This document shows positions 2 to 17,899 of a stretch of 64,000 bases of DNA, one piece after another. A program made the position numbers and the translations under genes. Within the stretch, counting starts at the first letter, position 1. The number at the start of each line of letters is the position of its first letter. The stretch spans positions 1,306 through 65,305 of the forward strand of contig JAQTMQ010000003.1 in assembly GCA_028714235.1 (NCBI GenBank), given 5' to 3'. The notes below the pieces were generated by a model. It made no database searches and was not told the origin of the DNA. It saw nothing but the letters and a program-made list of their open reading frames with translations. Origin of the DNA: Candidatus Iainarchaeum sp. (GTDB lineage: Archaea; Micrarchaeota; Micrarchaeia; Burarchaeales; Fermentimicrarchaeaceae).

Positions 2-1729
2 GGCGCTTGCCAGCGTGCCTTTCAGCTCATTCAGCTCTTCCCCATTCGCGGCGAGCCGCGCCGCCACTTCCCGGTCCTTCTCCGCCTCTTGCAAGAGCCT
101 GTTCGCCTTAAGCCGGTTGCTTTCAGCCCGGTTCTTCATAAGCCGGCTAACCGGGTCGCCGAGGTAATAATCGGCGTAAAACTCCCCGAGCATTTTCAGC
201 GACTGTCCGAGCGTGAATTGCGGGGGAGGCGACTCGACGCGCGCGTAGGCTGAAGCGAGTTGCCTCTCAAGCGACTCAAGACTCTTCGCTTCGCTGCCGA
301 GGTTGTTTCTCATGATGCTGATGACGGCCTTAAGCTCCTTCGCGTTCTTGTACGGGCTCTTCGCCCCGGTTTGGGGGTCAACCATGGACCCCGATTCCAG
401 CATGCGCTCAAGCTTGGCGATTTCGGCTTCCAGCGCGTCCTTCCTGCCCTTCTGCTCCGCCATCCTCTGCTCCAGCGCCGGCCTGGTACGCTCCAAATAC
501 TTCTTGTATTCCTCCGGGTTTTTCCGCCAGTCCTTCATCTGCCTGCCGATTGCGTGCGCGTTCACCACGGTGCGGCCGGTGGCGGCGGCCATCACGCCGG
601 CGTACTTGTACTGCTTCAGCATGCCGCCGAACACGGGTATCGTCGTGGTAATCAGCGAGGTCGTGGCCGCCCACTGGAGCTCTCCGTAGAAAAGCGAGCC
701 CTGCATTAGCGTCTGGTCGCGCTGCACCCCTTCGCGGAGCAACTTATGCTTGTTCAACTCGTTGGACTTTGTATCGTACGCATTCACCTTTGCCGCGCGC
801 GTTTTTTCGGTTAAAGCAAAAGTCTTGTACCTATAGTACCCGCGCGAGAGTATGCCTTTCCCCTCCCGCAGGTTGATGCGCTTCGCCAGAATCGCGTCCG
901 CCGGGAAACTGTAGATTTTTTCGAGCTTGGTGATGTCGCCCGCCGCCGCCCTCTGGTATTGGCCAAGGCGCCCCCCGCCAATGGCAGAGCGGGTCAAGAC
1001 CATGTTCGTCAGGTTCACCTTGCCGAGGTCCAGGGGCTTGGGAGTTATTTTGCCGGTATCCTCGCGGACTGCCACGCGCGCCTTGCCGAAAATTTCGGAA
1101 AGCCCGGCCTGCAGCTCCGCGTTCTTCACCCTGCCCAGCCCGGGCAAGGGCAGGAGCGCGCCGTCCTTCCCGGCCGTTTTCCCGTCCGCGTAAGCGCGGA
1201 TGACGAGCGCGTTCTGGAGCGCTTCCGTGCTGAGCGCCGAGCCGAGCTTCTGGTCGAGCTTGAGCACCTTCCCGTCCGCGTCCCTGAGCGTCTCCCACCG
1301 CGAGCCGCGCTTTATCTGGATTTCGCCCGCGTGCCTTCCCCGGTTGACGTGCCTCAGCTGTTGCCCGGCGAACTGGATGGAGTTGTATTTGGAGGTCTGC
1401 AGCCCCACCTTGTGCGCAAGACCGGAGATTACGCCGCCCTTGAGCAGGGCGAGGGCGTTCCGCTGGAGGGACGCGGCGCCGCTCATGAACTGGTAGGAGC
1501 GCACGCCCGGCTGGCGGGCAGTCTGCTTTTGCGGGCTCGTGATGTCGAAAAAGCCGAGCGGCGACTTGCCCTGCGCGTAAAGCGCGGCGAAAAGGAACGC
1601 GAGAAGCAGGAAGAACGGGAAGCACACCGTCATGTTCCCGATGTCCAGCATGGGCGCGCCTCCCGCAAAAGCCAAAGCAAAGCCTGACGTTAGGAAAACG
1701 GATGCGAGCATGCTCCCGCCCATCGTCAT
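2..1729 (-). CDS. hypothetical membrane-anchored protein; C-terminus lies beyond the window edge. N-terminal hydrophobic/signal segment followed by a Lys/Glu-rich, coiled-coil-like region
   Basis: Own translation of the reverse strand. ATG at 1727-1729 opens a frame with no stop down to position 2 (576 codons: MTMGGSMLASVFLTSGFALAFAGG ... EELNELKGTLASA). Absent from the ORF track because no stop lies inside the window. TATA-like TTTATTAAT at 1747-1755 about 20 nt upstream. Confidence 0.5.
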   Translation of the reverse strand, partial: MTMGGSMLASVFLTSGFALAFAGGAPMLDIGNMTVCFPFFLLLAFLFAALYAQGKSPLGFFDITSPQKQTARQPGVRSYQFMSGAASLQRNALALLKGGVISGLAHKVGLQTSKYNSIQFAGQQLRHVNRGRHAGEIQIKRGSRWETLRDADGKVLKLDQKLGSALSTEALQNALVIRAYADGKTAGKDGALLPLPGLGRVKNAELQAGLSEIFGKARVAVREDTGKITPKPLDLGKVNLTNMVLTRSAIGGGRLGQYQRAAAGDITKLEKIYSFPADAILAKRINLREGKGILSRGYYRYKTFALTEKTRAAKVNAYDTKSNELNKHKLLREGVQRDQTLMQGSLFYGELQWAATTSLITTTIPVFGGMLKQYKYAGVMAAATGRTVVNAHAIGRQMKDWRKNPEEYKKYLERTRPALEQRMAEQKGRKDALEAEIAKLERMLESGSMVDPQTGAKSPYKNAKELKAVISIMRNNLGSEAKSLESLERQLASAYARVESPPPQFTLGQSLKMLGEFYADYYLGDPVSRLMKNRAESNRLKANRLLQEAEKDREVAARLAANGEELNELKGTLASA

Positions 1730-1892
1730 AAACTGCTCAATCGCGGTTTATTAATCATGCGCCAAGCCGGGGGGTTTTGCGGCGCCTAATCCCTGCGACG
1801 GGAATTCGCGGCGCGCGCGAAACCCGCCTGTCGGGTCTCCGCCGGCGCAGGAAAAAAGCGCGGGCCGGCAGGCCGAAACGGGGTTTGCAGCC

Positions 1893-4553
1893 TCATTTCC
1901 GGCTCCCGGCGGTTTTTCCCCGGAGCGCGCCAGCCTGCCAGTCGAGCAAAAGCTTTCCGGCAAGCGCAAGCAGGATGAGGAGCAGCGGAAGGAGTACGGA
2001 AAGCGTGCCGAGGTCGAGGGGGAAGCCGCCGGACTGGTAGGTTTTCGCGTCCTGCGACCGCCCGTACCTCGCCTCAATCGGGTCGCTCATGTTCGGCTTG
2101 AAGGCCGCGACGGCGGTGTGCTTGCCCCACCCGCAGACGGTGTAGCAGAACGTTGCCTCGCCCACGGCGCAGCCGCCCGCCTCGCTGTCCTCCGAGCAGG
2201 TCTTGTTGTCCCCGACCCACCCGAAGTTGTTCAGGCACCTCCCGGAATCCTGGCACACGTTGGACGCGGTGCCGCAAAGCCCGCCAGAGCACTTGCCGCT
2301 TAAGCCGCAGGCCGAATCCGCGGCGCACTTCTTCGCGCACGTGTTCGTCTTCAGGTTGCACGCCTGCGTGCACGAATCGTCGCCCCCGGGCTCGCAGCCG
2401 CAGTCCACGTTTCCGTTGCAGGGCTTCCCGTAAAACTCCACGGCAACCACGCACTGCCCGTCTTCTCCGCAATCCGAATCGTCGAAGCACTTCCGCGTGT
2501 AGGAGCAATGCGGCTGCGCGTTGGTTATCCCGTTGACCGACTGGCGCACGCACTGGGACGAGCTCGTGCACGGAATCTGGCCGTCCGATGTCGAGCAGCC
2601 GGTGTCGGGGTCGCACGAGCAGCCGCCCGCGCCGTCGTTGTTCTCCTGGACGTAGATGGAGTCGTTAGTGTACTCGTTGTAGTCGACGGGATTGATGACC
2701 GCGCCCGCCTCGTAGAAGCGAATCGTCTTGTTCCCGAGCGGGTGCGTGGAGATGGAATCCGGCTCGTCGATGTACTTCGCGAGCAGCTTCGCCGTGAGGC
2801 AGACGAGCGTCTTGTTCCCGTCCGCCGCGTCCCGGACCGTGTCCGGCACCAGGGTCACGGTCGTCGGAAGCCTGAAGTCGAAGGACTGGTTCCAGATGAA
2901 CGTGTTGTTGAAGCGGTCGTAGAACGCGAACGACGCGTTGTGCTGCCCGAGCACCGCCTCGTCCATCACGAGCAGGCTCGCGGTGTCAAGGTTCGAGAAA
3001 AGGTAAATCCCGCTCGCGTTCTGGTACGTGGTCGGGTGGAATTTCAGCGGCTCGACGCGGATGACGCCAAGCTTCCCGCCCCCGCTCCCGCCGGAGGTCG
3101 TGACGCTTATCATCTCGTTGTCCCCGCCCTCGATTTCGACGCGGAAGACCTCCGCGAAGGCGACGCCCGTGGAGCCGCCGTCCGCGGAAACGCCGGACGC
3201 CGTGACTTTCTGCCCGTCCGCGCCAACCCCCATTATCGTGACCCTTGCCGTGCTGCCGCTCTTGTTCGTGTGCACCACGAGCTGGCTGCCCTGCGCGCCT
3301 GAAACCTTCCCGAGGGCGGACGAGGCGGTGTAGGTATTCTCGAGCACGTCCGCGAGCGTGGTCAGGAGCTGCTCGGGGCCGCCTCCGCCGGACCAGAACT
3401 CGATTGAATCGTTCGCAAAGCCGCCCTCGCCCTCGAAGCTGCCGACGCTTTCCAGGCGGATGTAGTAGATGGCGCGCCACTGGATGCCTGACGCGACGAA
3501 CGAGCCCTGGCTTCCGGGCAGGTACAATTCTTCCGAGTCAAGCTGGCCGTCCCCGTTCAGCCCGATAAGCGTCATCGTCCCCGAGCCGCCGTTCTGCGAG
3601 TACCAGCCCTGCGAGTCGCAGGGCGCCGCGGTGTGGCAGTCGAGCGAGGCGGATGGGCTGCCCAGGTCGCACCTCGCGCACTGCGCCATGCCCTCGCGGG
3701 GGTAGCGGTAGCGCGTCTCCTTCCTCGTCGTGTTGTATTCGCACAGGCAGGTTACCATGCCGTTTGTCTCGCATTTCGTCCACGGCGGGTTCAGGTCAAC
3801 CGAGCCCGCCACGCACTTGCCCTGCTTGTCCGGAGTGACGTCGGAAAGCGCCTTGCACGCGGCGTCCAGCGCGTCCCTGTTCTGCTGTTCGCTCCCGCTG
3901 ACTGCGAGGATGCAGAGGTCCTGGGAATGGAACACGTGGGTGCTCGCGTCCTGGCTGACGAACGTGTGGTTGCAGCAGACGTTCTCGTGCGACGAGACCT
4001 TGACGTTGCGCGCGCTGCCGGCCACCATGGGAACGAGTGAGCCCGAATCCGCGGAGAATGTGGACGGGCCCTGGAACCCGGCCCCGGGGATGAAGATTGT
4101 GCCGATGACGACTTTCGCCTGGCCGGGGTCGGTCCACAGCTCGTATTCGTCGCCGAACCCGCCTCCCTCTCCCCCGACCTCGGTTATGTCCTTGAAGCCC
4201 GTGTTCGTGGCGTCCGCGTACCTGAACGGGTACGCTTCCGCGTCCGGAACGAATTTGTGCGTGCCCGGCTCGAAGCTGCCCGTGATTGAGACGCTCGCGC
4301 TGATTGCGTTGTTGGTCGCATTCGCGCCGACAAAGCTCAGGGCGGTCACGTTGCTCACGCGGTTGGGCACCGGCTTCAGCATCAGCGTCGCGTCCGGCGG
4401 AATCGGGGACGTGTTGTACAGCTTGTAGTCTTTAGAGAAAACCCAGTCCAGGCTGGTGCGGTTGTAGCCTGCCCACCACGGGTCCTTGTTGAGGTCGAAA
4501 TACGAGATGGCGTTTACGTCGTAGCGCGGCGCGGCGGGGTCTTTCGGGGACAC
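1893..4553 (-). CDS. C-terminal segment of giant cell-surface protein: Cys-rich module, C-terminal hydrophobic anchor with basic tail (LPLLLILLALAGKLLLDW...GSRK), no signal peptide of its own. In frame with 4620..11189 across a single TAA
   Basis: ORF-track ORF of 886 aa with a GTG start. Same frame as the upstream 2189-aa ORF (coordinate arithmetic: 69 nt apart). The 22 intervening codons read as ordinary protein (TRYRNTLYGYQYLNSSPDAYEN). Many N-x-S/T sequons. Confidence 0.6.
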   Translation of the reverse strand: MSPKDPAAPRYDVNAISYFDLNKDPWWAGYNRTSLDWVFSKDYKLYNTSPIPPDATLMLKPVPNRVSNVTALSFVGANATNNAISASVSITGSFEPGTHKFVPDAEAYPFRYADATNTGFKDITEVGGEGGGFGDEYELWTDPGQAKVVIGTIFIPGAGFQGPSTFSADSGSLVPMVAGSARNVKVSSHENVCCNHTFVSQDASTHVFHSQDLCILAVSGSEQQNRDALDAACKALSDVTPDKQGKCVAGSVDLNPPWTKCETNGMVTCLCEYNTTRKETRYRYPREGMAQCARCDLGSPSASLDCHTAAPCDSQGWYSQNGGSGTMTLIGLNGDGQLDSEELYLPGSQGSFVASGIQWRAIYYIRLESVGSFEGEGGFANDSIEFWSGGGGPEQLLTTLADVLENTYTASSALGKVSGAQGSQLVVHTNKSGSTARVTIMGVGADGQKVTASGVSADGGSTGVAFAEVFRVEIEGGDNEMISVTTSGGSGGGKLGVIRVEPLKFHPTTYQNASGIYLFSNLDTASLLVMDEAVLGQHNASFAFYDRFNNTFIWNQSFDFRLPTTVTLVPDTVRDAADGNKTLVCLTAKLLAKYIDEPDSISTHPLGNKTIRFYEAGAVINPVDYNEYTNDSIYVQENNDGAGGCSCDPDTGCSTSDGQIPCTSSSQCVRQSVNGITNAQPHCSYTRKCFDDSDCGEDGQCVVAVEFYGKPCNGNVDCGCEPGGDDSCTQACNLKTNTCAKKCAADSACGLSGKCSGGLCGTASNVCQDSGRCLNNFGWVGDNKTCSEDSEAGGCAVGEATFCYTVCGWGKHTAVAAFKPNMSDPIEARYGRSQDAKTYQSGGFPLDLGTLSVLLPLLLILLALAGKLLLDWQAGALRGKTAGSRK

Positions 4554-4619
4554 GTTCTCGTAGGCGTCGGGCGAGCTGTTCAGGTATTGGTAGCCGTAAA
4601 GCGTGTTCCTGTAGCGGGT

Positions 4620-7600
4620 TTAGTTGTACCTGAAGCTCGAGTTCACCATCAGGGACTTGGACGAGCCGTTGACGTTGTCGAGCGCCACGAAATGCTTCGT
4701 GAAAAGCCTGGACGAATACGCGGCGTATTCGAGGGACGGGTACACCTCCGGCGCGCACGCGCCCCCTATGCAAACCGCGCCGCTCTGGCACTGGCTGTCC
4801 CGCACGCACGCCTCCTTCTCGCTCCTGTACGGGGTCTGGAACGCAAGCTTGAAAGTGCCTCCCTCGTAAAGGGCGTGCAGGACTGGCGCGACCCCGTGCG
4901 CAATGCCCCAAATCTTGCCTCCGTTGTAGCTGATGTTGACCGCCCCTTCCACGACGGTGTCAACGTAAAACTGGGCGAAATACTTTCGCGTTACGTTCGG
5001 GATGGTCGCGGAAAGGCCGGCTGAAGCCGACCTGCCTGCCGCGATGCTTGAGCCGGCCACCGCCTGCTGCCTCCGGCACACGCTCATCGGGATTCCCGCG
5101 CGGTCCGGGCAGCCCTCGCAGTAAACCCCGTACGGCAGGTTCTTCCTCAGGACGTCCTCGTAAACCAGGACGTCGGTCGGGCCCCTTAGGTCGGGGTCGG
5201 TAATCTTGCCGACGAGCTGCTTCGCGGCCGAAACGCTTCCCTGGACGTCCTTGAAGTCTTCGCTCACCTGCAAGCCCGTGACTTTGACCCTCCAGACCCC
5301 TTCCCAGTCCGGCTTCGTCTTCTCCGAGTCCCTGACGGGCAGGTAGATGTCGTAGTTGCCGCTGCCGCCGTAAACGTCAATGCCGTCAACGCGGGCGTTG
5401 TCGTCGTCCGTTATGTCAAGCTTCTCGACTATCCCGAAAGCGCCGCCGACGCTGAAATCCCAGCCCATGCCGCCTTTCTCCTCAAGGCCGGTTCCGGACG
5501 CGGTCATCCCGCCCCAAAGCGCATCCGTAACCGCGCTGAAGCCCTCGCCCGAGATGGTGGAATAATCGCCTGTGTAAACCGACTTCTTTATGACGAGGTG
5601 CATCGCGGGCTTCACGTTGCCGTACTCGTCCTCGTAATAGACGCGGACCCAGTTTTCGGTGCGCTTGTACTTGGTTTTGTCGTCCCCGCAATAGTTGCAG
5701 GAAGCCGAGCCCTGCGCGTCGCCCTCCCCGAATATCGCCTCGCCGTAGGACAGCTGCCTGAAAGTGAACGCGAAGAGGTCGACCGAGGTGCACCCAAGGC
5801 ACCCCCCTGTCTTGGCCCAGTCGCAGCGCTGCGTCAGCCCCGGCCTCCCGAAGCCCTCCCTGCGCTCGAAAGTGAAGCGGTCCACTACGAAGATGTAGCC
5901 GTCCTTGTACGCGACCGCCACGCCCTGGTGGTAGCGCCTGAACGAAACCAGGCCCGCCGTCTGGCCGATGATGTCGTCCGCGGTGTTCGGGCCGTCGCGC
6001 TCCGGCGTGAACAGGTACTTGTCGTCAACGCAGACCCCCTTCCCTTCGCCGAACGGCTTGACCGCCGGAGAGAAGAACGACACGAACCCTTCGCCTATCT
6101 CGACGTACGGGTTGAGGCAGATGCCCGAGCTGTCGCAGTTGTTGGCGCCGCATTCCAGGTTGCTGTCGAGGAAAAGCGGCTTGAGGCCGCCCACGGACTC
6201 GCTGAACGTGGGCTGGTTCGCGCCTGACATCCATGCGGGCGCGGCCCAGTAGCAGTAGCCTTCGCCGTAATTCAGCGGCGGGCTTCCGGCGATGTTTGAG
6301 TCCCAGCAGCCGGAGCCGAGCTGCCTGCAGGGCATGTACAGCGGGATGTTCTGGAAGCTCGAGATGACCTCGCCGTCAAAGCGCAGCATCATGAGCGAGT
6401 CCGTGCCGTAAACTATGTAAATCTCGCTCCCGTCGCCGGCCACGGCGATGTCCGCCCTGTCCCGGATGTAATGCGAGCCCTGCTCGGGGTTGAAGTTGGA
6501 GTACCCTATGATTGAAGGCGCGTTGCGCGCGTAGGAGGTGTTCACGCTCCAGTCCGGGTTCAGGATTTGGATTACCACTTTTCCGCACGTGAGCCCGAGC
6601 GGGTCGCAGTTCACGTTGTCCGGCTCCGTCAGCCCGACGACGAAAATGCGGTTGTAGGAGTCTATGGCGACCCCGAACGGGTGGTAAGGCCCGGTGTAAT
6701 CAACGGAGAACGGGTCCGCCAACTCCCCTGTCGAGGTTGTCCGCGTGTTCCTCTCCGCGTTGGCGTAAAGCGAGCCCTGCTCCGGGACGCGGCCGATGAG
6801 CTTTATGACGTTCCCGCTGTCCTGCCTCGCAAGCTTGAAATAGTAAAGCGAGCCGCCCTTGCTGTCGGCAACGTAAAAGTTTCCGCGCTTGTCCTCGGCC
6901 ATGCCCTGCGGGTTTTTCCTGAACACGTCGTCAATGCCGGGCTGCGGGTACGTCTCGAACCTCTTGCCCGGATACCCGGAAGCGGAGAAGTCGTACGGGT
7001 AGTCGTAGCGCGAGATGTAGCCTTCCTTGTCGAGGGTGAGCATCGCGCTCGGCCCCTTTATCTCGAACGGGTTCAGCGGCCCCGAGCCCGAGCCGGGCAT
7101 GACCGTGTCGTTCGTCATGTTGAATGACGAAAGCGAGATGTTCGCGTTCAGCTCGACCGAGAGGTTGAAGTAAACCGGCGTTATCGCGTACAGGCTGTCC
7201 AGCTCTGAGCCGAGGGGATTGCCGTTTTTGCCCATCGCGGAAACCCCCCAGCCCCAGACGATGCGGGGATAGCGGAAGGTCGCGCGCATGTAATCGTCCG
7301 AAACGTCCGAGCCGTTGAAGTTCAGGTGGTCGGAAATCTCGCCGTCAATCTGCGGCGTGTAGGTGAAGCCCTTGACGCACAGGATTCCCGCCTCGCCGTC
7401 GAACTGGCCCGTCCCCTGCAGCTCGCCCGCGGCCGGGTCGTCCACGACGCACCATTTCACCGGAATCTCGGAATACCCGACCGCGCAAACGTCGTCGTTG
7501 CCGTACATCCTCTGGCCGTCCCAGCCGATGAGCCTGTCCCCGGCCGCGTTATTCGCGGCGTCCACGGCGTTGACGTCGGGGTAGTACAGCACTTCGCTGC

Positions 7601-10600
7601 CGTCCGGGTTGGCCACCGTCACGTTCTCTTCCGTCTTGTTGGCCGGGGGGTTCACGGTGCCGTCATAGCAGTTCGTGTTCAGGACGAGGGTCGCGTTTTC
7701 GCCGGACGCGAGGTCGCAGCCGTCGCACGTCCCGTTGACGAGGAGTATGCCGTTCTGCGTGGCGTTCACGAGGAACTCGCAGTAGCCGAGCGCCGGGTCG
7801 ACCGGGCAGGAGATTGACGACGACCGCTCGCCCCCGGGAAGCCGCGCGTACGCGTAGCCCACCGTGTTGTGGTTCTCGTCCTCGAAGTGGATGCTGACCG
7901 TGTACGCGTAGCCCTTCAGCGCCTTGCCGGCTGCGTCCGACACGTATGCGCGGGCGGCGAACTCCACGTTCTTCAGCGTCTTGGGGGGCAGCGTCAGCGT
8001 GATGTTTTTCGGCTCGGCGGTGATGGTGATGGCCGCGTAGCCCGTCGCCGGCTGCACGCCCACTTGGCCGAAAGTCTGGTTCGTCGCGGTTACCTCGAAG
8101 TCCCCGGGCCGGCTGATGGACATGTTGAACGCCATCGTCCCGTTCTCGATGTTGCAGCAGTAGGTGTCCGGGAAGCCCGTCTGCTCCTGTATGCTCTTCA
8201 TTGCCTCGGTCTTCTGGTGGTCGCACGTGAAATCTGTCCTGAGCGGGTCAACCAGGTTGAATACCTCGCACCTGCTCTTGTTTTTCGCGTAGGTCACGTT
8301 GAACTGGTAAGGGGCGCCGCCGTCGGCAACCGGGTCGCTTGGCACCGCCCAGATGTACGCGTACTTCGTATAGTTTTCGTCGAGGTCGAAGTACTTGTTG
8401 AGCACGGTGACGTTGCCCGGGAAGTTCGTGGCGGTGGAGGCGACCGCAGCCGGCGGGATTATCACGCGCATTGTCATCTCGGTCGTGTTGTGGCGCACGG
8501 TGACGTTGACGCTGCTGTTGTACTCCTCGCGCCCGCTCACGTAGAAATAGTTGTAAATCTTGTTCACGCGCCGGATGCCCGGGAAAAGGTTTCCGGCCGC
8601 GTTGTCCTGCGCCGCCACCTGGTCCCCCACGTAAATGTCTTCGTACGCGACGAGCCGGAAGGTGTGGTTTCCCCGGTCGCAGTCGTTGAACGTCCAGGTG
8701 CAGAAGCACCGCGCCTCGTCAAGCATCGTTCCGGCCGGGTCCTCCTCGCAGCAGGGCCACGCGGAAAGCCTGTTCGGGGGCGGGCAAAGCCCGGGGGCCG
8801 GGGCCGTGCTGTTGTACCTCAGGCCCTCGACCGTGCACTCCTCCGGGGACAGGTACCGCAACGCCCCGCCCGGGCTGCCGTCCACCGTGATGTTGCGCAG
8901 GTCGCTTTCGTTTTTGCGGTTGTAAAAGTATTCTATGACCTGCTTTACCTTCACCTGCCCCCTGAAAAAGTTGTTGAGGCGCGGGTCGCGGTAATTGTTC
9001 TGCTCGACCGGGTTCGCGCCGCCCGGCGCAATATCGTAGGCCGGGCAGCTCGCGTTGTTGCCCATCTCCGTGCAAATCCTCGCGTCCGCGTAAGGCGGGT
9101 CCGGCACGCCCCCGAAAATCGCCTGGCTCCACGTGGCGAAGCCGGGAAGCAGCTCCAGCGGCACGCGCTCCACGTCGTACGGCCACTGGTGGTATATGTC
9201 CGACACGTTCACGGTGACGTTGTAAAGCTTTTCCGAGTCCACAATCCCGCTGTCGCGGTCGAAATCGTCAAGCGCGCGGTAAACGTAGGGCGTGCGCGCG
9301 TTTTTCGCGTAGCTCACGTAATAGTCGAGGAAAAGCGACGAGTTGGAGCCCTCCCCGAAATCCACGTCCGGGGTGCACACGTAGCCCGGCGCGCACGGCT
9401 CGTGCCCGCGTGGAATGCCGCCGTACGCGCACAGCTCCTGGAATTCCGGGTCGGCCGGAATCACGTTTTTCGGCGAATCCGGGAAGCCGATGGTGTAATG
9501 GCTGTAATACGTGGTCCCGTAGCAGCACGCCGTGTCGTAAGGCCCGGTGTAGTACGAGCAGATGTCGCCTTGCCCGGGGTCGCAGTCCGGGTCGGTCATG
9601 AAGCTGTCTATCTGGCCTTCGCAGTAGTCGCCGCTGCAATCGCAGACCGGGGCCTGGCTCTCCACGGCCCAGTAATCGACGTTGGTCGTGCTCCCGGCCA
9701 CTTTACCGCAAACGTAGGCCTTGGGCACCGGGCACTGGCAGCCCGGGCAGGTTTCCGGGTCGTCGCCGTCAAAGCAGGACGTCCCGCATTGCGCCGGGGT
9801 GACTTCCGGGTTGTTCGTTTCCGAATAGTCTATCGGCTGCGGCTCCCAGCGCGTCACGGTCAGGCGGAACGGCTTAGTAAGCTGGCCGCAGACGGTGACG
9901 TTCGCGCAGTAGGCGTCAGGCAGCCGGATGGGGTTGCCGAGTATGTCCGTATCGTCGCGGTACCGTATGAACGTGGGCCACACGCCCACCTTGCTGATGC
10001 CGCTGTCAACGTAAAAGAAGCTTGCCACGTCCGTGTCGTTTATTTCGGCGTCTATCGGCTTGTTCCAGCAGATGCCTTTGTCCACGTCGCTTCCCGGGTA
10101 GTCCCTGCCCTGGCCCTCGACGATGGGAAGCTCGTTGTTGGCGTAATTGACGGCCGGGGGGACGTAGCCGATGTTGCAGTCGAGGCAGGATTCGCCGCAG
10201 TCGCAGTGGCCGGGGCAGGCGCAGGAGTAATCCGGCGGCTGGCTGTAAGCCGGCGTGCAGTACGGTATTGGGGTGGTGTCGCCCTCAATCTTGTAGTCGC
10301 CGGCATTGTTGCATACCTCGAGCTGCGTGCATTCCTCGGAGGGAAGCTGCGGCACCGGAACAGGCTTTATTTCGTCGCCGCAGGCCGGAATCTCGAGCTC
10401 TCCGAGCGGGGGCGGCGGGGCGCCGGAACCCGTGCCGCCGTTGCACGTGTTCCCGTAATTCGCCATTTCGTCGTAGGAATGGCAGGTTTCGGCGGTTCCC
10501 TGGTACATGCACAGGTACGGGTTGGGCGGGTCGAAGAGCTCGGGCGGGCACCATTTGGGGAACCCGTTCACGTCGCACGGGTCCCGGACGGAGTAGCAGC

Positions 10601-11189
10601 TTGCCGCGGTGATGGTGTTGCCCGTGATTGTGGCCGTGTTCGACCCCGTGAAATCCACGTCGCACGAGTCCACGGGATACATGTTCCCGCACCACAGGGT
10701 GTCCTCGAAAACGTAGCCGTTGGAGCAGGTGCTCGAGCGCTCCACTATGATTCCCGTGTCCGACCCGCTTATCGTGTTGTCCCGGACGGTTATCGCCTGG
10801 CCTGCCACGACGACCGGCCGGCCGCCGTAGCCGTCGCAATAGCTGAAGCGCAGGTAAATTCCCGTGTCGAAGCCCTCGAAGCCGCAGTTCTGGATGGTGG
10901 CGCCGTTTGCCTGCCCCAGGATGACTCCCGTGCCCCCGCGGCTGCTTACGAGCTTGTAGCCGCGGCAGTCAAGCGTCACGCCGTTCAGGACGCCGGGGCT
11001 CCCGGTTATCGTCAGGCACGCGCCGCCGCTTGACGTGATGTCGTGGGTCAGGTAATGCTCCCCGGGCTGCGTTATCACCCCGCAGGATGTTATCTCCATG
11101 GCGGCCGCGGTCTGGGATGCGGCGAGGACGAGGAGGAAAAGCTTCGCGGCTGCGCAAAACCCACGCTGCGAAAACGCGCGACGGTTCAT
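4620..11189 (-). CDS. giant secreted surface protein (2189 aa) with N-terminal Sec signal peptide, right-handed beta-helix-like repeats, NHL/beta-propeller-like repeats, Cys-rich stretches and dense N-glycosylation sequons
   Basis: ORF track. N-terminus MNRRAFSQRGFCAAAKLFLLVLAASQTAAA is a signal peptide. Repeats such as NCGFEGFDTGIYL / VRDNTISGSDTGIIV (pectin-lyase-fold-like) and GNFYVADSKGGSLYYF / YHPFGVAIDSYNRIFVVG (NHL-like). No non-overlapping alternative frame. TATA-like CTTATTAATTT at 11213-11223 upstream. Confidence 0.7.
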   Translation of the reverse strand: MNRRAFSQRGFCAAAKLFLLVLAASQTAAAMEITSCGVITQPGEHYLTHDITSSGGACLTITGSPGVLNGVTLDCRGYKLVSSRGGTGVILGQANGATIQNCGFEGFDTGIYLRFSYCDGYGGRPVVVAGQAITVRDNTISGSDTGIIVERSSTCSNGYVFEDTLWCGNMYPVDSCDVDFTGSNTATITGNTITAASCYSVRDPCDVNGFPKWCPPELFDPPNPYLCMYQGTAETCHSYDEMANYGNTCNGGTGSGAPPPPLGELEIPACGDEIKPVPVPQLPSEECTQLEVCNNAGDYKIEGDTTPIPYCTPAYSQPPDYSCACPGHCDCGESCLDCNIGYVPPAVNYANNELPIVEGQGRDYPGSDVDKGICWNKPIDAEINDTDVASFFYVDSGISKVGVWPTFIRYRDDTDILGNPIRLPDAYCANVTVCGQLTKPFRLTVTRWEPQPIDYSETNNPEVTPAQCGTSCFDGDDPETCPGCQCPVPKAYVCGKVAGSTTNVDYWAVESQAPVCDCSGDYCEGQIDSFMTDPDCDPGQGDICSYYTGPYDTACCYGTTYYSHYTIGFPDSPKNVIPADPEFQELCAYGGIPRGHEPCAPGYVCTPDVDFGEGSNSSLFLDYYVSYAKNARTPYVYRALDDFDRDSGIVDSEKLYNVTVNVSDIYHQWPYDVERVPLELLPGFATWSQAIFGGVPDPPYADARICTEMGNNASCPAYDIAPGGANPVEQNNYRDPRLNNFFRGQVKVKQVIEYFYNRKNESDLRNITVDGSPGGALRYLSPEECTVEGLRYNSTAPAPGLCPPPNRLSAWPCCEEDPAGTMLDEARCFCTWTFNDCDRGNHTFRLVAYEDIYVGDQVAAQDNAAGNLFPGIRRVNKIYNYFYVSGREEYNSSVNVTVRHNTTEMTMRVIIPPAAVASTATNFPGNVTVLNKYFDLDENYTKYAYIWAVPSDPVADGGAPYQFNVTYAKNKSRCEVFNLVDPLRTDFTCDHQKTEAMKSIQEQTGFPDTYCCNIENGTMAFNMSISRPGDFEVTATNQTFGQVGVQPATGYAAITITAEPKNITLTLPPKTLKNVEFAARAYVSDAAGKALKGYAYTVSIHFEDENHNTVGYAYARLPGGERSSSISCPVDPALGYCEFLVNATQNGILLVNGTCDGCDLASGENATLVLNTNCYDGTVNPPANKTEENVTVANPDGSEVLYYPDVNAVDAANNAAGDRLIGWDGQRMYGNDDVCAVGYSEIPVKWCVVDDPAAGELQGTGQFDGEAGILCVKGFTYTPQIDGEISDHLNFNGSDVSDDYMRATFRYPRIVWGWGVSAMGKNGNPLGSELDSLYAITPVYFNLSVELNANISLSSFNMTNDTVMPGSGSGPLNPFEIKGPSAMLTLDKEGYISRYDYPYDFSASGYPGKRFETYPQPGIDDVFRKNPQGMAEDKRGNFYVADSKGGSLYYFKLARQDSGNVIKLIGRVPEQGSLYANAERNTRTTSTGELADPFSVDYTGPYHPFGVAIDSYNRIFVVGLTEPDNVNCDPLGLTCGKVVIQILNPDWSVNTSYARNAPSIIGYSNFNPEQGSHYIRDRADIAVAGDGSEIYIVYGTDSLMMLRFDGEVISSFQNIPLYMPCRQLGSGCWDSNIAGSPPLNYGEGYCYWAAPAWMSGANQPTFSESVGGLKPLFLDSNLECGANNCDSSGICLNPYVEIGEGFVSFFSPAVKPFGEGKGVCVDDKYLFTPERDGPNTADDIIGQTAGLVSFRRYHQGVAVAYKDGYIFVVDRFTFERREGFGRPGLTQRCDWAKTGGCLGCTSVDLFAFTFRQLSYGEAIFGEGDAQGSASCNYCGDDKTKYKRTENWVRVYYEDEYGNVKPAMHLVIKKSVYTGDYSTISGEGFSAVTDALWGGMTASGTGLEEKGGMGWDFSVGGAFGIVEKLDITDDDNARVDGIDVYGGSGNYDIYLPVRDSEKTKPDWEGVWRVKVTGLQVSEDFKDVQGSVSAAKQLVGKITDPDLRGPTDVLVYEDVLRKNLPYGVYCEGCPDRAGIPMSVCRRQQAVAGSSIAAGRSASAGLSATIPNVTRKYFAQFYVDTVVEGAVNISYNGGKIWGIAHGVAPVLHALYEGGTFKLAFQTPYRSEKEACVRDSQCQSGAVCIGGACAPEVYPSLEYAAYSSRLFTKHFVALDNVNGSSKSLMVNSSFRYN

Positions 11190-11212: not shown

Positions 11213-11223
11213 CTTATTAATTT
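11213..11223 (-). promoter_or_regulatory. TATA-box-like element about 25-30 nt upstream of the giant surface-protein start (leaderless-type spacing)
   Basis: AT-rich AAATTAATAAG (minus strand) in otherwise 65 % GC DNA; position relative to the ATG at 11187-11189. Confidence 0.35.
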
Positions 11224-11329: not shown

Positions 11330-13702
11330 CTAGCTTGCGCGGCCGATTATGGCGTTGAGGGTTCCGAGCGTGATGAACTGGATGCGGCCGATGTCGGACT
11401 CCATCTTTATCGTGACCGCGAGGCTCGTCGCCGATGTGGCGAGCCTGCGCTCGAACTCGTCGAGCTCCTCGCGGCTTGCGAACACGACGTAGGTCATGCC
11501 CTTCGCCGCGGTCCTTGACGCGCGCGCGATTGACTCGTCGCCCTCGTATATGTGGACGAAGATGTTTTCGCCGCGGTAGTTGGCGAGCACGTCGGCGTCC
11601 TGCCTTTGGCCGACTTCGGTGAAGAGGATGGCGTTGTTTATGAAGAAGTTGCGCATTTCGCGGAACATGGCGAGGTAGCGCGGGGTTTTTCCCGACTGCT
11701 TGAGCCATGAGGCGAGCCCGTAGGCGCCGCCTTCCTTGAAGACCTGGCCGGTTTCCGCGAGCTTGGAGAGGAGCTTGTCCAGGTTGTAGTCGCTTATGAG
11801 CACGGGCTTGCCCTGGTACTTTATTTTCCGTTTCACGCCCGTCTTTATCTCGCCGATTGTCAGCGGCATGTACTTCCAGCGGTAGTCCGCGTTCATGGAG
11901 TCGAGGAGGTTGATGAGCGAGTACTTGGATATCATGACGCGCTCCTTTCTCTGCGGCGGAAAGTCGGGGACGTCGATGAAGTACCTTTCGGGCTCGGAGC
12001 GCTGGAGCGCGATGCCCAGGATGAAGATGATTAGCGTGGCGCCGATTATGACCTGGTTTTTCGTGTCGTCGAAGAACGTCGTGGGGCGCGAGCGCGCGTC
12101 GCTGAGCGTGAGCATCCTCCCGGTCGTGTTGAAGGCGAAGGTGTGGTTGCCCACGCCCGGGGACGAGGCGGGCGCGACAGCGAACGCCCCTGAGGCGTCG
12201 GTGGTCGCCGCCATCGGGGGGCCGCCGTCTATCGAGACCATGACCGGCGTGTCCGTGACCGGGACGCCGTCGGTGGCGAGCCTGAACGCGAACCTCGGCG
12301 TGTCGTAGTCCATGCTGATTTTTTCAACCGTGGCCACGGGCACGTGGAGGTATGACTGGGCGTACACCGTTCCCGACGGGTCGGCGAGGCGCAGGATGTA
12401 GTCTCCGTCAGTGAGGTTCACTACGTACTGTTTGGTGGATTCGAAGCCGTCCGAGTATTTCGCGGATATGAACGGCTGCTCCTGCACCTGCCGCCCGTCC
12501 TTGTGCGCCACCAGGTTGAAGTACAGCGTCTGCCCACCGCTGCTCCCGCTGATTTGCAGGGCGACGTTTATGCTCGAGCCGTTGACCCCGCGGAACGGGT
12601 TGAGCATGTGGCCGGACACCGTGCGGCGCACGCCGCTTATTTCCGTGAAGCTGTTCACCGTCCTGTTTTCGCCGGGGCCGCTCCACATGGTCGCCGACTC
12701 GTAAACCCGGATGTAGTTGCCGGCGCTTTGGGCGGGGACGCCGTTGATGAACAGGGAGTCTGTGGCCGAGCCGTCCGGCTGCGCGAGCGAAACCGTCTTG
12801 TTGGCGGTCGCGGTGGGCTGCTCCCATTCCACGCGGTAGAGCAGCTCGGCGACGTCCCCTGCCGCGAGCGCGGGGCCGGTGTGCCAGTCGCCCCAGCCGA
12901 CTTCAAGCGTGTTGGGGAATACGATTAGGTAGCCGCTGCCTATCTTCTGCCACGAAAGCGAGTTGTACTTGAACGAGCTGTTCAAGCCCGCGAGCATGAA
13001 CGTGCTCTGCCTGAGGCGGTACGGGGGAATCGCCGGCTGGCTGCTTCCGACCGGGGCGTAGCTTATGTTGAACTTGGCCGCGAGCGCCGCCGGGTCCTGG
13101 TTCGTTATCGTCTCGTCGCGGCCAATCGTTTGCCCGAAGTCGCTTCCCACGTATACGACTACGCACCCGAGGCCGAGGAGCCTGCCGATGCTCGCCATGC
13201 TGGAATCGTCGAAAAACTCGCTCGGCATCCTTCCGGTCGGCACGATTATTATCGCTTTCTGGGTGGAGTTGGTGAACCTCGCGAGCTGCGGGATTTGGAT
13301 TGTGTTGAGCAGCTGGTCCTCGCGGAGGAGGCCGCGCCCCCTGAGCGCCTGCTCGAGGTCCGCGTAGAAGCCGTCCCGGTCCACGTCGTTCTGGCCGGCC
13401 CACGGGTGCTCGAGCACGTAGATGTCGTTCGGGACCGGCTGGGGGTATTGCTTTGCCTGGAGGGTGATTTCCGAAACGTCGCTTGAATTCACCGCGAAAA
13501 GCAGGTAAACCGAGCTGTAGCCGGGCGTTGAGCCGTAGTCGAGTATCTGGGCGTCGGTGAAGTGCAGGCTGTAGCCGGGGTTGTATTCGTGCGGCGCCTG
13601 GGGCGCGCCCGCCTCCATCATTGACTGCCAGTAGTAGTAGGCGAGCGCGGACGCGAGCACTATCACCATCAGCGACGCGATGAGGATTTTCCGGAGGTTC
13701 AT
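11330..13702 (-). CDS. hypothetical two-domain membrane protein (790 aa): N-terminal signal-anchor, about 500-aa extracytoplasmic region, internal TM helix (VIIGATLIIFILGIAL), about 230-aa C-terminal cytoplasmic domain
   Basis: ORF track. Hydrophobicity pattern read from the sequence. Protein-like composition, in contrast to the Arg-rich overlapping frames. Confidence 0.55.
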   Translation of the reverse strand: MNLRKILIASLMVIVLASALAYYYWQSMMEAGAPQAPHEYNPGYSLHFTDAQILDYGSTPGYSSVYLLFAVNSSDVSEITLQAKQYPQPVPNDIYVLEHPWAGQNDVDRDGFYADLEQALRGRGLLREDQLLNTIQIPQLARFTNSTQKAIIIVPTGRMPSEFFDDSSMASIGRLLGLGCVVVYVGSDFGQTIGRDETITNQDPAALAAKFNISYAPVGSSQPAIPPYRLRQSTFMLAGLNSSFKYNSLSWQKIGSGYLIVFPNTLEVGWGDWHTGPALAAGDVAELLYRVEWEQPTATANKTVSLAQPDGSATDSLFINGVPAQSAGNYIRVYESATMWSGPGENRTVNSFTEISGVRRTVSGHMLNPFRGVNGSSINVALQISGSSGGQTLYFNLVAHKDGRQVQEQPFISAKYSDGFESTKQYVVNLTDGDYILRLADPSGTVYAQSYLHVPVATVEKISMDYDTPRFAFRLATDGVPVTDTPVMVSIDGGPPMAATTDASGAFAVAPASSPGVGNHTFAFNTTGRMLTLSDARSRPTTFFDDTKNQVIIGATLIIFILGIALQRSEPERYFIDVPDFPPQRKERVMISKYSLINLLDSMNADYRWKYMPLTIGEIKTGVKRKIKYQGKPVLISDYNLDKLLSKLAETGQVFKEGGAYGLASWLKQSGKTPRYLAMFREMRNFFINNAILFTEVGQRQDADVLANYRGENIFVHIYEGDESIARASRTAAKGMTYVVFASREELDEFERRLATSATSLAVTIKMESDIGRIQFITLGTLNAIIGRAS

Positions 13703-13707
13703 TCAAA

Positions 13708-13965
13708 TCATTGCCCTCTTTTGCCGGTGAGGCGGGAGATGAGCGGCGAAAGGATTTTGAGGACCGGGTTCGGGACGGGCTCTGCGACGCGCTTTTTTAT
13801 CGCGTACTGCCGCGTGTGCTCGAACCGTTTCTTCACGCGTAGCAGGAGCACGTTTTTCTCGGCCGTGTACTTGAGCGCGGCTGCCCCGATTTTGGCTATT
13901 TCCCGCTGCACGTCGGCCGCGCCGCTTCCCCCCTTCCCGGATTCCGCCCCGCTTTCGCCCATCAT
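13708..13965 (-). CDS. small hypothetical protein (85 aa), Lys-rich
   Basis: ORF track. Overlaps the upstream 260-aa gene by 4 nt (13962-13965), suggesting translational coupling. Confidence 0.3.
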   Translation of the reverse strand: MMGESGAESGKGGSGAADVQREIAKIGAAALKYTAEKNVLLLRVKKRFEHTRQYAIKKRVAEPVPNPVLKILSPLISRLTGKRGQ

Positions 13966-14744
13966 CTCAACTCGAGGTAGCCGCCCAAAACCATTTTGTT
14001 GAGTATGGCTTCCACGCGCGACTCAACCACGTTGTACTGCTTCGAGAACTCGGGGATGCTTATCTCGTTCCTGTGCACGTCAAGCCAGTCCTGCAGCTTC
14101 ACCATCAGGGTTTCGTCGCTGTAGGCCTCGAGCTCCTTCACGCGCAGGGTTAGCTCGTCGTTCTCGGAGCGCGCCTCGATGAGGTCCTTGCTCATCTTCG
14201 AGTGCTGGGCCTCGAGGAGCTCCGTCTTCTTCTTGAGCTCCGAGAACCCGCGGAGCGCTTCGTCGTATTTCGCGAAGATGGTGTTGTAGTCCGAGGAAGC
14301 GAACTCTGCTATGTCCTTGAGCACGGACTGGAGGAGCTGGTACAGCTGCTTCTGGTCGGCCTCGCATGCGCCGTCGAGCTGCGTGAGGAGGTTGAGGAGG
14401 TGGCGGCACACCTCGATTTTCCGCTTCCTCGCGCTCGCGCCCGGGATGACCGAGTAGGCGACCTCAATCGAGGAGGGCCGCAGGTAGGTGATTGAGAAAA
14501 GGTATGGGCTCCGCTTTATGTCCCTGCTTTCGACGTTGAGCACCGCTACGGTGTCGCCGTCGACCGAAACCTTCAGGAACGAGCTTGCCGAAAGGATGCG
14601 CGAGATTTCGGCCGGCTCCTTCGACCGCGTTGCCGAAAGCGCGAAGCCGTCAACTGCCGGCTCCGCTTTCGCTTCCTCCTGCGGCTTCTGCTGCGCGGCC
14701 TCCTGCCCGGAGGGCTGTGCTGGCGTGGCGGGTATCTGCATCAC
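13962..14744 (-). CDS. coiled-coil protein with C-terminal helix-turn-helix-like segment (ISIPEFSKQYNVVESRVEAILNKMVLGGYLE); candidate regulator or accessory protein of the island
   Basis: ORF track. Heptad-like Glu/Lys/Leu-rich central region. C-terminal wHTH-like pattern. TATA-like TATTTAATTT at 14775-14784 upstream. Confidence 0.5.
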   Translation of the reverse strand: MMQIPATPAQPSGQEAAQQKPQEEAKAEPAVDGFALSATRSKEPAEISRILSASSFLKVSVDGDTVAVLNVESRDIKRSPYLFSITYLRPSSIEVAYSVIPGASARKRKIEVCRHLLNLLTQLDGACEADQKQLYQLLQSVLKDIAEFASSDYNTIFAKYDEALRGFSELKKKTELLEAQHSKMSKDLIEARSENDELTLRVKELEAYSDETLMVKLQDWLDVHRNEISIPEFSKQYNVVESRVEAILNKMVLGGYLELR

Positions 14745-14795
14745 CTCAAACGTTTCCGGTCCCTGCTGCGGTAGTATTTAATTTCCCGCCGCTTT

Positions 14796-15179
14796 TTATG
14801 CCTTCGTTCCGGCGGCCTTCCCGCTCTCTTCCCCCCTCTTCTCCGGCAGCTCCGCCTTCGGGTAGTAGTTGACGAGGGACAGCGCGAGGAGGAACGCTGC
14901 CGCGAGCGCCCCCGCGAGGATTGACGCCAGCGAACGCGACGAGTAGAGCACGAGGAAGAACATTGCGGCGGCGAGAAGCCCGTACCACATCAGGTATTTC
15001 TCGAACCGCGCGCGCTTCCCGCGCGCCGCCTCGACGTCGTCCTCGCAGACGACGAGCGAGTTTCCCGTGGCCCTGCCGAGGCGCTCCTTTGCCGCGCGAA
15101 TCGTGGAAAGCACGGGGTCCTCCTGGACTGGGTGGCCCGCCTTTTCCTTCCCGCACACGATGCAAACCGTTTTCGGCAT
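14796..15179 (-). CDS. small membrane protein with N-terminal CxxC zinc-ribbon-like motif (CIVCGK) and two C-terminal TM helices
   Basis: ORF track; hydrophobic segments LLAAAMFFLVLY and ILAGALAAAFLLALSLV. Confidence 0.4.
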   Translation of the reverse strand: MPKTVCIVCGKEKAGHPVQEDPVLSTIRAAKERLGRATGNSLVVCEDDVEAARGKRARFEKYLMWYGLLAAAMFFLVLYSSRSLASILAGALAAAFLLALSLVNYYPKAELPEKRGEESGKAAGTKA

Positions 15180-15188
15180 TGTAACAAC

Positions 15189-15488
15189 TCAATCGTAAAA
15201 CGCTATGTCCTGAACCCTTTCCTCGTCCATGCCCGCCTTCTTGAGGTCGGCGCGCGAGAAGACGGTGATGAGGACGGAGTCGTCGACGCCGCCCTCGCGG
15301 AGCATGGCGTAAACCCTGCCGCGCGGGACTCCGAGCCGCTCGACCGCCGCGACGAAGCTCACGATGTCCATGTGCCTGCTCCGCTTGTCGAACGCCGAGC
15401 AGACCTCCTCCGTCTGGTTGTCGGTGAGGCCGATGTCCCTCAGGCGCGACCGCAGCCCCACCTTCTCCATCGAAATCGCGTAGACCAC
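15189..15488 (-). CDS. hypothetical protein (99 aa)
   Basis: ORF track. Non-Arg-biased composition. Sits between the ATPase and the Zn-ribbon gene in the same orientation. Confidence 0.35.
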   Translation of the reverse strand: MVYAISMEKVGLRSRLRDIGLTDNQTEEVCSAFDKRSRHMDIVSFVAAVERLGVPRGRVYAMLREGGVDDSVLITVFSRADLKKAGMDEERVQDIAFYD

Positions 15489-15501
15489 GGCCGTGCCACC
15501 T

Positions 15502-17046: not shown

Positions 17047-17061
17047 CGGCTCACCAAAAAC

Positions 17062-17889
17062 TCAAAGGCTTGAGACGAAATCCGCCCGCTCCGGCGGGAT
17101 GTAGTGCTCCCATGTGAAGCAGCGCTTCATGTCCTCGCCGCGAAGCGGCTTGATTTCCACGTTGAGCGCGTTCGCGGCGGTGGAGCGGATTTCGCCGACC
17201 TGCCTGCGCGCGGCGGCGATTGCCGCTCCCTCGTTCGCGCCGATTCCCGTCGTCACCGCGTACTGCACGACGCCCATAGGCTTCTCGCCCTCGGCGAGGC
17301 GCTCGAGCATCGCGTTCGCGCGCTGGATTTCGCGCTCCCACTTGTCGAGCGTGAGCGCGTCCGGCTTCCCGCTTTCCCTTTCCTTGCCCAGCTTGTACGT
17401 GGCGGAATACCGCTTGTCCTCTATGCGCTCCCTGTACTTCGCGATGTCCTCGAGGTAGGCTATCAGGCAGAACTTGAACGGGAACTTTATCTGCGAAAGC
17501 GAGCGCTCCCAGAGGTCGACGTACGTCGAGGTCAGCGGCGCCTCCGCGTCGGCCGTGCTGGACTCGTAGAATTTCACCGCCATGTACATCGTCGCGTGGC
17601 AGGTCCCGCCGACGTCCTTGACGACCGCGTCCTGCGACGGCGGAATCCGGTAGCCGCCCCCTATTTCCTCGCTCACCTTGAGGAAGCCGGTGACGAGCGG
17701 CATCGCCATGTAGCCCATCATGAACGAGACGTAGACCGCGCCCACCCCGAGCGCGCCGAGCACCGAAAGCGCGATTGCCATCACGCCCCCGAAAAGGCTG
17801 AGGTTCAGGTAGACCACGCCGACCCCGAAGACCGTGCACGCTATCGCTGCGTACGCGGCGTTCTTTTCGTTCATCCTCAGGTCAACCAA
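17062..17889 (-). CDS. bitopic membrane protein P1 (two N-terminal TM helices plus about 190-aa soluble domain); paralogue of 17900..18691
   Basis: ORF track. Shared motifs with the neighbour (DAVVKDVGGTCHATMYMAVKFYESS vs DVVVKRVGDGYYATMFAAVRIFKSA; C-terminal ...LRGEDMKRCFTWEHY vs ...LTGDDLRRCVDWSYC). Confidence 0.5.
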   Translation of the reverse strand: MVDLRMNEKNAAYAAIACTVFGVGVVYLNLSLFGGVMAIALSVLGALGVGAVYVSFMMGYMAMPLVTGFLKVSEEIGGGYRIPPSQDAVVKDVGGTCHATMYMAVKFYESSTADAEAPLTSTYVDLWERSLSQIKFPFKFCLIAYLEDIAKYRERIEDKRYSATYKLGKERESGKPDALTLDKWEREIQRANAMLERLAEGEKPMGVVQYAVTTGIGANEGAAIAAARRQVGEIRSTAANALNVEIKPLRGEDMKRCFTWEHYIPPERADFVSSL

Positions 17890-17899
17890 GCGGAGTCAC

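Follow-up and report, generated by a model that had tools for sequence, protein, structure and literature searches.

The window analysed here is a stretch of 64,000 nucleotides from the contig JAQTMQ010000003.1. Its G+C content is about 63%, and it is archaeal, encoding RFC, ABCE1, a Pelota/eRF1-like protein, A-type ATPase subunits and IleRS. Up to about position 27000 all genes of the window lie on the minus strand. This part contains a giant gene (1893..11189) for a putative surface glycoprotein and, upstream of it, a cluster of genes that looks like a relative of conjugation systems (11330..26911).

The giant gene and its interrupting stop codon

The open reading frame (ORF) originally flagged in the window, ORF1, and the segment downstream of it are one gene, cut by a single in-frame TAA. 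The gene comprises the following features:

1893..11189, minus strand: giant gene, complete frame; 3,098 codons, one of them an internal TAA; terminal TGA at 1893-1895
4620..11189, minus strand: ORF1, the flagged reading frame ("hypothetical protein" PHF51_01000 at NCBI), 2,189 codons from ATG to TAA
4620..4622, minus strand: in-frame TAA, codon 2190; the family column is Tyr/Phe, within a conserved block
1893..4619, minus strand: remaining, C-terminal third, with 908 codons and a stop, in the same frame as ORF1
11214..11223, minus strand: AT-rich TATA-like element AAATTAATAA, read from the sequence, about 25-34 nt upstream of the ATG of the giant gene

The product of ORF1 is identical to the NCBI protein PHF51_01000, and its G+C content by codon position (0.56/0.47/0.87) is of the coding type; a look-up of contigs encoding exactly this product gave no record. 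NCBI annotates the C-terminal third separately as PHF51_00995, a protein of 886 amino acids (aa) starting from the GTG at 4553, and the initial annotation had likewise assumed a 2,189-aa protein followed by a separate downstream protein. This division was not upheld, because the two parts share a frame, they align with homologues across the stop, and the homologues read through it. The frame 1893..4619 begins immediately past the TAA and continues the reading frame of ORF1. When the fused frame was compared by BLASTP with the homologue P0123, one alignment covered aa 731-2271, spanning the stop, and a second covered aa 2265-3085; the C-terminal third alone matched aa 1850-2623 of P0123 with 31% identity (E 2e-100). 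In a MAFFT alignment of eight full-length members, the column of the stop is occupied by Phe in six homologues and by Tyr in one, and it lies in one of the best-conserved blocks ('...NSSFRYN*TRYRNTLYGYQYL...'). The homologous genes in the loci L085 and L087-L089 are uninterrupted single ORFs of 2,633-2,961 codons, and also the loci L001, L003, L005, L006 and L026 have no stop at the homologous position. Full-length homologues measure 2,631-3,334 aa, a range into which the fused frame of 3,098 codons falls. The public annotation is thereby corrected, its two 'hypothetical proteins' being one interrupted gene.

The TAA differs by one base from TAC or TAT. Downstream of it the frame is fully open, with a G+C content at third codon positions (GC3) of 0.89 and an identity to homologues equal to that of the upstream part (31%). 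The frame must therefore have been interrupted very recently, by a nonsense mutation or as a strain variant, unless the TAA is an error of the assembly. A junction sequence with N at the third base of the stop, used as a test for a TAC/TAA polymorphism, gave 0 matches in the JGI metagenome contigs. As assembled, the product would lose its C-terminal anchor. Reassignment or readthrough of the stop codon was considered and rejected: TAA terminates five of the 39 genes of the window, ORF1 and four others, and the ATPase and the three remaining genes end with it at positions matching those of their homologues; the housekeeping genes are intact.

Architecture and conservation of the protein family

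In 1.84 billion representative proteins, an exhaustive HMMER search with aa 1190-2189 as query found only 11 homologues. Searches by word index, run with ORF1 and the downstream segment, had returned the query alone, a misleading result, since the exhaustive search together with synteny recovered relatives which the word-indexed search had missed. The family is unnamed and has no Pfam model. Its conserved core is distinctive, and its members come from a single Micrarchaeota-type subclade. Giant surface proteins of ultra-small symbionts as such are a known kind of protein. Its regions in the window, as positions of the fused frame, are as follows:

11100..11189, minus strand: signal peptide, aa 1-30 (MNRRAFSQRGFCAAAKLFLLVLAASQTAAA), with a hydrophobic segment at aa 11-29; same layout in homologues
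10590..11087, minus strand: short right-handed beta-helix, NosD-like, about aa 35-200; detected with Pfam, in this family member only
9330..10592, minus strand: variable region rich in Cys (34 residues) and Pro, aa 200-620; no Pfam match, low occupancy in the family alignment
7605..9332, minus strand: sequon-rich, mostly beta region, aa 620-1195; common only to the closest homologues
6930..7607, minus strand: family signature domain, aa 1195-1420; the most conserved block
5310..6932, minus strand: NHL-type beta-propeller region with long insertions, aa 1420-1960; from the family profile against PDB
4110..5309, minus strand: conserved region holding the interrupting stop, aa 1960-2360; from the MAFFT alignment, no Pfam or PDB relatives
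2640..3242, minus strand: conserved membrane-proximal domain, aa 2650-2850 (...FYDRFNNTF...); 39-47% column identity, no Pfam or PDB match
2115..2624, minus strand: Cys-rich module, aa 2856-3025, with 25 Cys in 170 aa; not present in all family members
1896..2072, minus strand: conserved membrane anchor, made up of the C-terminal motif Y-x-[SA]-G-G, a transmembrane helix and a basic tail, in this order

The conserved part is mainly the C-terminal two-thirds, between about aa 1200 and the anchor. Over the first 700-1,000 residues the members do not align with one another, and as the anchor is C-terminal, it is this variable stretch that lies farthest from the cell. Both the beta-helix and the Cys-rich region near the N-terminus occur only in the copy of the source genome, other members beginning with immunoglobulin (Ig)-like repeats or different Cys-rich stretches, so that, judged from the sequences, neither part is conserved family-wide. 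The giant proteins have an identity of 25-32% between relatives whose ATPases are 75-81% identical.

The N-terminal pectin-lyase-fold-like repeats of the initial annotation were recovered. When aa 31-230, which include VRDNTISGSDTGIIV at aa 135-149, were scanned alone, both NosD (PF05048; 29.4 bits, gathering cut-off 23.6) and Beta_helix (PF13229; 26.3 bits, cut-off 25.9) exceeded their cut-offs; in the scan of the whole protein NosD was borderline (22.5-23.6 bits). The beta-helix is about five coils long. It was the only part modelled with a predicted local distance difference test (pLDDT) score of 50-69 in the single-sequence AlphaFold 2 (AF2) model, as a strand ladder of about 120 residues; the single-sequence models had overall pLDDT values of 30 and 33. 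A Foldseek search with the better AF2 model gave no match at E < 0.2.

The NHL-like blades proposed earlier stay below the threshold in this protein alone (PF01436, 13.4-18.2 bits, cut-off 20) but are supported by the family profile, which matched in the PDB the Pizza designs (E 6.5e-15), the PknD sensor (E 4.8e-10), and Thin, TRIM71 and Brat (E 1e-7 to 6e-4). The Pfam models NHL and SBBP each match three of the 11 family members, reaching E 1e-6. Two blades are statistically supported, and about three further ones are present as motifs only (aa 1577-1600, 1754-1775 and 1934-1952); GNFYVADSKGGSLYYF is at aa 1436-1451 and YHPFGVAIDSYNRIFVVG at aa 1502-1519 of the same region, and all peptides quoted in the initial annotation were recovered. 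The region aa 620-1195 possibly ends in an Ig-like module (about aa 1060-1160), as suggested by weak matches to Big_1, Filamin and Invasin_D3, each of which occurred in one family member only. The invariant positions of the signature domain include C1235, C1247, C1271, P1279, D1282 and W1312-x-W1314-G1315 (local P1308-R-I-V-W-G-W-G), and this domain has no match in Pfam or PDB. Searches of both segments against PDB with phmmer gave nothing useful, the sole match being an antifreeze protein (E 0.02).

A Cys-rich C-terminal module exists as was first described, but with 25 Cys in 170 aa and not about 40 in 200; the whole downstream segment (1893..4619) contains 38 Cys. Its suggested EGF- or laminin-like character was not borne out, as none of the Pfam models for EGF, Laminin_EGF and related modules matched aa 2850-3040 at E <= 1 to 10. 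The only weak matches of the Cys modules were to Dickkopf_N and the EB module and concerned aa 2120-2146 of ORF1.

The signal peptide and the C-terminal transmembrane helix are the sole hydrophobic segments of the fused frame. The same pattern of two segments is present in three (P0124, P0125 and P0129) of the five full-length relatives that start with a signal peptide, and the other two, P0123 and P0132, each have one extra internal segment above the hydrophobicity threshold. The tail did not match any known C-terminal sorting signal in NCBIfam, and its motif is absent from the other proteins of the window.

Dozens of N-x-S/T sequons had been noted, and their number is indeed in excess: the 3,098-codon frame has 56 of them compared to 22.9 +/- 4.3 in shuffled sequences (z 7.7). 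This corresponds to 16-19 sequons per 1,000 aa, 3-10 times the density of most other proteins of the window (0-6 per 1,000 aa), the exceptions being two small ORFs, 47438..48076 and 57063..57914, with 25-28 per 1,000 aa. Sequons are enriched in ten of the 11 family members (z 4-11). Two tandem glycosyltransferases of the PMT/PMT_2 family (GT-C type) are encoded at 28573..31519 on the plus strand, just beyond the cluster, and they may bear on the glycosylation of surface proteins. No AglB/STT3 was seen in the window.

The adjacent conjugation-like cluster

The genes that precede the giant gene, and the one that follows it, are listed here; four small proteins are also encoded, co-oriented, between the ATPase and the 790-aa bitopic protein:

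25728..26911, minus strand: three paralogous small VirB2/TrbC-type pilins, each with a signal peptide and two hydrophobic helices
18718..25566, minus strand: six paralogous polytopic membrane proteins of the same cluster; no Pfam or PDB relatives
17062..18709, minus strand: two paralogous two-helix proteins of the same cluster; no Pfam or PDB relatives
15502..17046, minus strand: HerA/VirB4-superfamily ATPase, 514 aa, with DUF87, AAA_10 and P-loop_TraG above their cut-offs
11330..13702, minus strand: 790-aa bitopic protein, conserved as the 3'-terminal gene of the core cluster in nearly all loci of Micrarchaeota
2..1747, minus strand: next gene after the giant gene, N-terminal 582 codons, cut by the window edge; membrane helices and a coiled coil

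Position and orientation of the giant gene, immediately downstream of and co-oriented with a pilus-type locus, agree with the initial annotation. The locus, first described as pilus-like, is by its protein content conjugation-like (type IV secretion system (T4SS)/Ced/Ted-like) and not a type IV pilus, because it combines VirB2-type pilins with a VirB4/CedB-like ATPase. The sole PDB match of the pilin profile was TrwL, the VirB2 pilin of plasmid R388 (E 0.0084). Among the 11 members of the pilin family, the Pfam model T4SS_pilin matches eight and TrbC/VirB2 four; one orthologue reached 28.9 bits with T4SS_pilin, above the cut-off of 26.6, and the window copy 25728..26042, at 26.0, fell 0.6 bits short. 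For the ATPase, the best NCBIfam matches were CedD, CedB and VirB4-like, all far below the equivalog cut-offs (62-67 bits for CedB/CedD, the cut-offs being 600-700). The six polytopic paralogues occupy the place expected for a VirB6/CedA-like channel protein, but have no similarity to one in Pfam or PDB.

The ATPase has more than 1,000 close homologues with 57-90% identity, almost all of them labelled Micrarchaeota. In GTDB species representatives it has 418 relatives. Most of the 80 loci kept for a survey have the same core order up to the 790-aa protein, which was found in 71 of the 80. The tblastn search of the ATPase against plasmids gave only distant DUF87/TraC matches (24-30% identity), and no sign of a plasmid or mobile-element origin of the cluster was seen, its GC content being uniform. 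The secretion system linked to arCOG01314 (Makarova 2015) was checked and is a different system, and the cluster was absent from the limited collection of Micrarchaeota/DPANN literature searched. In DPANN, the cluster 11330..26911 on the minus strand seems to be a counterpart, so far undescribed, of the Ced/Ted systems. As its close relatives are all labelled Micrarchaeota, the NCBI label 'Candidatus ainarchaeum sp.' of the metagenome-assembled genome is doubtful.

Some further observations concern single components of the cluster. The C-terminal end of the ATPase (aa 426-511; 15502..15790, minus strand) is homologous to the stand-alone 99-aa protein encoded just downstream (15189..15488, minus strand), with 29-40% identity between the two in relatives. 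Several ATPase orthologues (L089:830-3976, L026:8159-11311, and many loci with matches longer than 1,545 nt) have an in-frame insertion after residue 74, by the P-loop. The insertion looks like an intein; in L089 it is about 1.6 kb long and the ORF has 1,067 codons, and the ATPase of the window is without it.

Ten of the 11 pilin-like proteins, those of the window (25728..26911, minus strand) and orthologues taken together, have a short tail rich in Gly, Ser and Thr that closes with a C-terminal Cys. In nine of them this Cys is the last residue and in one it is followed by Ala; the 11th sequence was incomplete, cut at 'GCAGC'. Attachment by lipid or disulfide, or cyclisation as in TrbC/VirB2, are possibilities. 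L022 encodes (21311-19960, minus strand of the locus) a fusion in which a Cys-rich tail of about 330 aa accompanies a pilin-like domain; the tail has C-x-x-G-x-C motifs in the style of the Cys-rich modules of the giant protein. Also the third membrane paralogue (21982..23451, minus strand) has an extracellular Cys-rich insert ('CGGDADCRPPGEPARCAQDLDCPLGQLC...'), which resembles the C-x-x-D-S-x-C-x-x-G-x-C of the giant protein at aa 2128-2146 and aa 2890-2970.

A member of the giant family directly follows the 790-aa gene in all nine recovered contexts: the window, L001/L085, L003/L086, L005, L006 (Ca. Fermentimicrarchaeum limneticum), L026, L087, L088 and L089. The common order in all of them is ATPase, p99, p127, p260, (p85), p790 and the giant gene. 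Ahead of the giant gene the gap is 140 nt in the window, and in five metagenome loci the gaps between stop-to-stop frames, with start codons not refined, are 0-64 nt. The clusters carrying the giant gene all have ATPases at least 70% identical to that of the window. In about 50 more distant clusters with enough downstream sequence, neither the giant gene nor any other large secreted protein was present at that place. The co-occurrence, proposed earlier as a check, exists in one direction, every giant gene with a recovered context lying beside a cluster, but is partial in the other, and because of these approximately 50 clusters the giant gene is a clade-specific accessory and not part of the core cluster.

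The gene following the giant gene in the window (2..1747) has a homologue of at least 3,309 codons in the same place in L085 (17480-27407). The corresponding gene of L088 (16836-21200, 1,454 codons) shows a weaker match, with 57% identity over about 55 residues (E 6e-7), and L087 and L089 have large ORFs after the giant gene with no detectable similarity to the product of 2..1747. The product of 2..1747 matched weakly an archaea-specific SMC-related protein (E 1e-3).

Proposed function and comparison with known systems

The most likely reading of these results, to which we give an even chance, is that the giant protein serves in cell contact: it would be a glycoprotein specific to its lineage, anchored in the cell and variable at its distal tip, which acts alongside the conjugation-like apparatus. 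Seen in the sequences are the shared frame, the alignments across its stop, the signal peptide and the anchor helix, the surplus of sequons, the NHL and beta-helix matches and the fixed gene order; from them we infer that the protein is glycosylated, displayed on the surface, adhesive and coupled in function to the apparatus. The protein would be exported by Sec, N-glycosylated, and held in the cytoplasmic membrane by its C-terminal helix. The membrane-proximal two-thirds would form a conserved base consisting of the signature domain, the NHL-type propeller with its insertions, the proximal domain and the anchor, and the distal N-terminal third a lineage-specific tip, made up here of the short NosD-like beta-helix and the Cys-rich region. 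The variable tip would point outward and bind the surface of another cell, and the binding would make or stabilise a contact across which the pilus apparatus works. The initial annotation had proposed a functional link to the pilus-like locus, with the protein as a tip or contact adhesin. The co-occurrence in nine of nine contexts agrees with such a link, but a role at the pilus tip, of the VirB5 type, is unlikely because the full-length relatives have a transmembrane anchor at the C-terminus; a contact protein anchored in its own cell is the better fit.

The gene may also have no current surface function in the source genome, being there a dead or dying pseudogene or coding for two separately expressed products, which we consider possible although rather doubtful. 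The in-frame TAA at a conserved position, a genuine stop in this window, and the annotation of two proteins by NCBI speak for this, as does the downstream part, which has no signal peptide and no obvious ribosome-binding or promoter signal ahead of the GTG at 4553. The 908 codons downstream are nevertheless open and as similar to their homologues as the upstream part, as described above, and so the inactivation would have to be very recent, or else the stop, a single-base change from TAC/TAT, is an artefact of assembly or strain. An unlikely alternative in our judgement is that the giant protein is the main S-layer-type envelope glycoprotein of this Micrarchaeota subclade and merely a neighbour of the cluster. 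The signal peptide, the excess of sequons and the C-terminal membrane anchor make up the classic layout of an archaeal S-layer glycoprotein, and the fast divergence relative to the ATPases is typical of envelope proteins. With 2,600-3,300 aa, however, it is far larger than known S-layer proteins, no S-layer or PGF-CTERM family was matched in NCBIfam or Pfam, and other Micrarchaeota have no recognisable counterpart at that position; the strict adjacency to the cluster in every context also speaks against a chance neighbour. An extracellular enzyme, a polysaccharide lyase or hydrolase built on the beta-helix, is very improbable. The N-terminus does match NosD and Beta_helix, and weakly the pectate-lyase-like Pect-lyase_RHGA_epim (E 0.005), and the insignificant fold matches include pectate lyases, alginate lyases and tailspikes. 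All of these fold matches had E > 0.2, though, and no catalytic family reached its threshold, so that nothing in the domain searches points to an enzyme; furthermore, the beta-helix is short and present in no homologue, and it is therefore not the seat of the function of the family.

Several results weigh against a contact glycoprotein coupled to the apparatus. Since about 50 related clusters work without the giant gene, the coupling may be loose, and the TATA-like element suggests that the giant gene possibly has its own promoter. Self-BLAST found no internal repeats, unlike in many giant adhesins, nor are there paralogues in the window, and the Pfam scans found no PrgB, VirB5, cadherin or repeat-in-toxin modules. 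The structure models are of low confidence (pLDDT 30-33), and a fold is indicated, by sequence matches, for the beta-helix and the NHL region only. On the side of the apparatus, the six membrane paralogues did not show any likeness to VirB6, either with the profile against PDB or with Pfam member by member. Finally, the gene is interrupted in the source genome and may be non-functional there.

If the giant protein is a contact glycoprotein, a wider and quite speculative scenario, which we regard as distinctly unlikely in its full form, is that a phylum-wide, vertically inherited, conjugation-derived pilus machine of Micrarchaeota-type DPANN acquired two giant partners in one clade, the anchored glycoprotein and the coiled-coil protein. 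Together they would form a host-contact or docking structure for taking host DNA or other macromolecules, with the hypervariable tip as the determinant of host specificity. For the way in which DPANN archaea recognise and hold host cells, and for what passes between the two, the family described here offers at the level of genes a concrete candidate for cell-contact machinery: unannotated anchored putative glycoproteins of about 3,000 aa with a variable tip, whose genes always close a conjugation-like pilus cluster found throughout Micrarchaeota.

Among known proteins, the VirB5-type adhesin of the T4SS pilus tip is small and soluble, while the giant protein has about 3,100 aa, is anchored and does not match VirB5 in Pfam. 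Archaeal S-layer glycoproteins share with it the signal peptide, the dense N-glycosylation sequons and the C-terminal membrane anchor, and differ in size, in family matches and in lacking the strict association with the cluster. The NHL propellers of the extracellular sensor PknD, of TRIM-NHL proteins and of Brat were matched by the family profile over about two blades (E 6.5e-15 to 6e-4), but the giant protein has long Cys-containing insertions between the putative blades, which are embedded in a surface protein of 3,000 aa. The SPEARE proteins of Nanohaloarchaeota are likewise very large secreted or surface proteins of DPANN and have been proposed to mediate host contact. The present family belongs to a different phylum and is unrelated to them in sequence, Pfam scans detected no protease, restriction-endonuclease or other SPEARE-type domains in it, and its gene is fixed beside a T4SS-like cluster.

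The Ced and Ted systems of Crenarchaeota (CedA/A1/B; TedA/B/C), archaeal systems derived from T4SSs (PMC9905601), are relevant here as context only. Like the present locus, they are chromosomal clusters that combine a VirB4/HerA-like ATPase with polytopic membrane proteins and two-helix pilins resembling VirB2 (PMC9905601). They have one CedA or TedA, whereas the present cluster has six membrane paralogues with no detectable similarity to VirB6, and no giant surface protein is described for them in PMC9905601.

The closest functional and positional likeness is to the PrgB/aggregation-substance adhesins (Enterococcus pCF10), which are analogous and not homologous to the giant protein; no PrgB-domain match was found in it with Pfam. 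The T4SSs of monoderms depend on surface adhesins such as PrgB (PMC12102498). Like the giant protein, these adhesins are large, cell-anchored and encoded within or beside a conjugation-type cluster. They differ in that PrgB is anchored by LPXTG-sortase and the giant protein by a C-terminal transmembrane helix, and the latter is archaeal and two to three times larger; moreover, the cluster of the giant gene includes VirB2-type pilins, which the monoderm bacterial systems are without. The role of PrgB, to provide the cell-cell contact for a transfer apparatus (PMC12102498), is the one that we propose for the giant protein.

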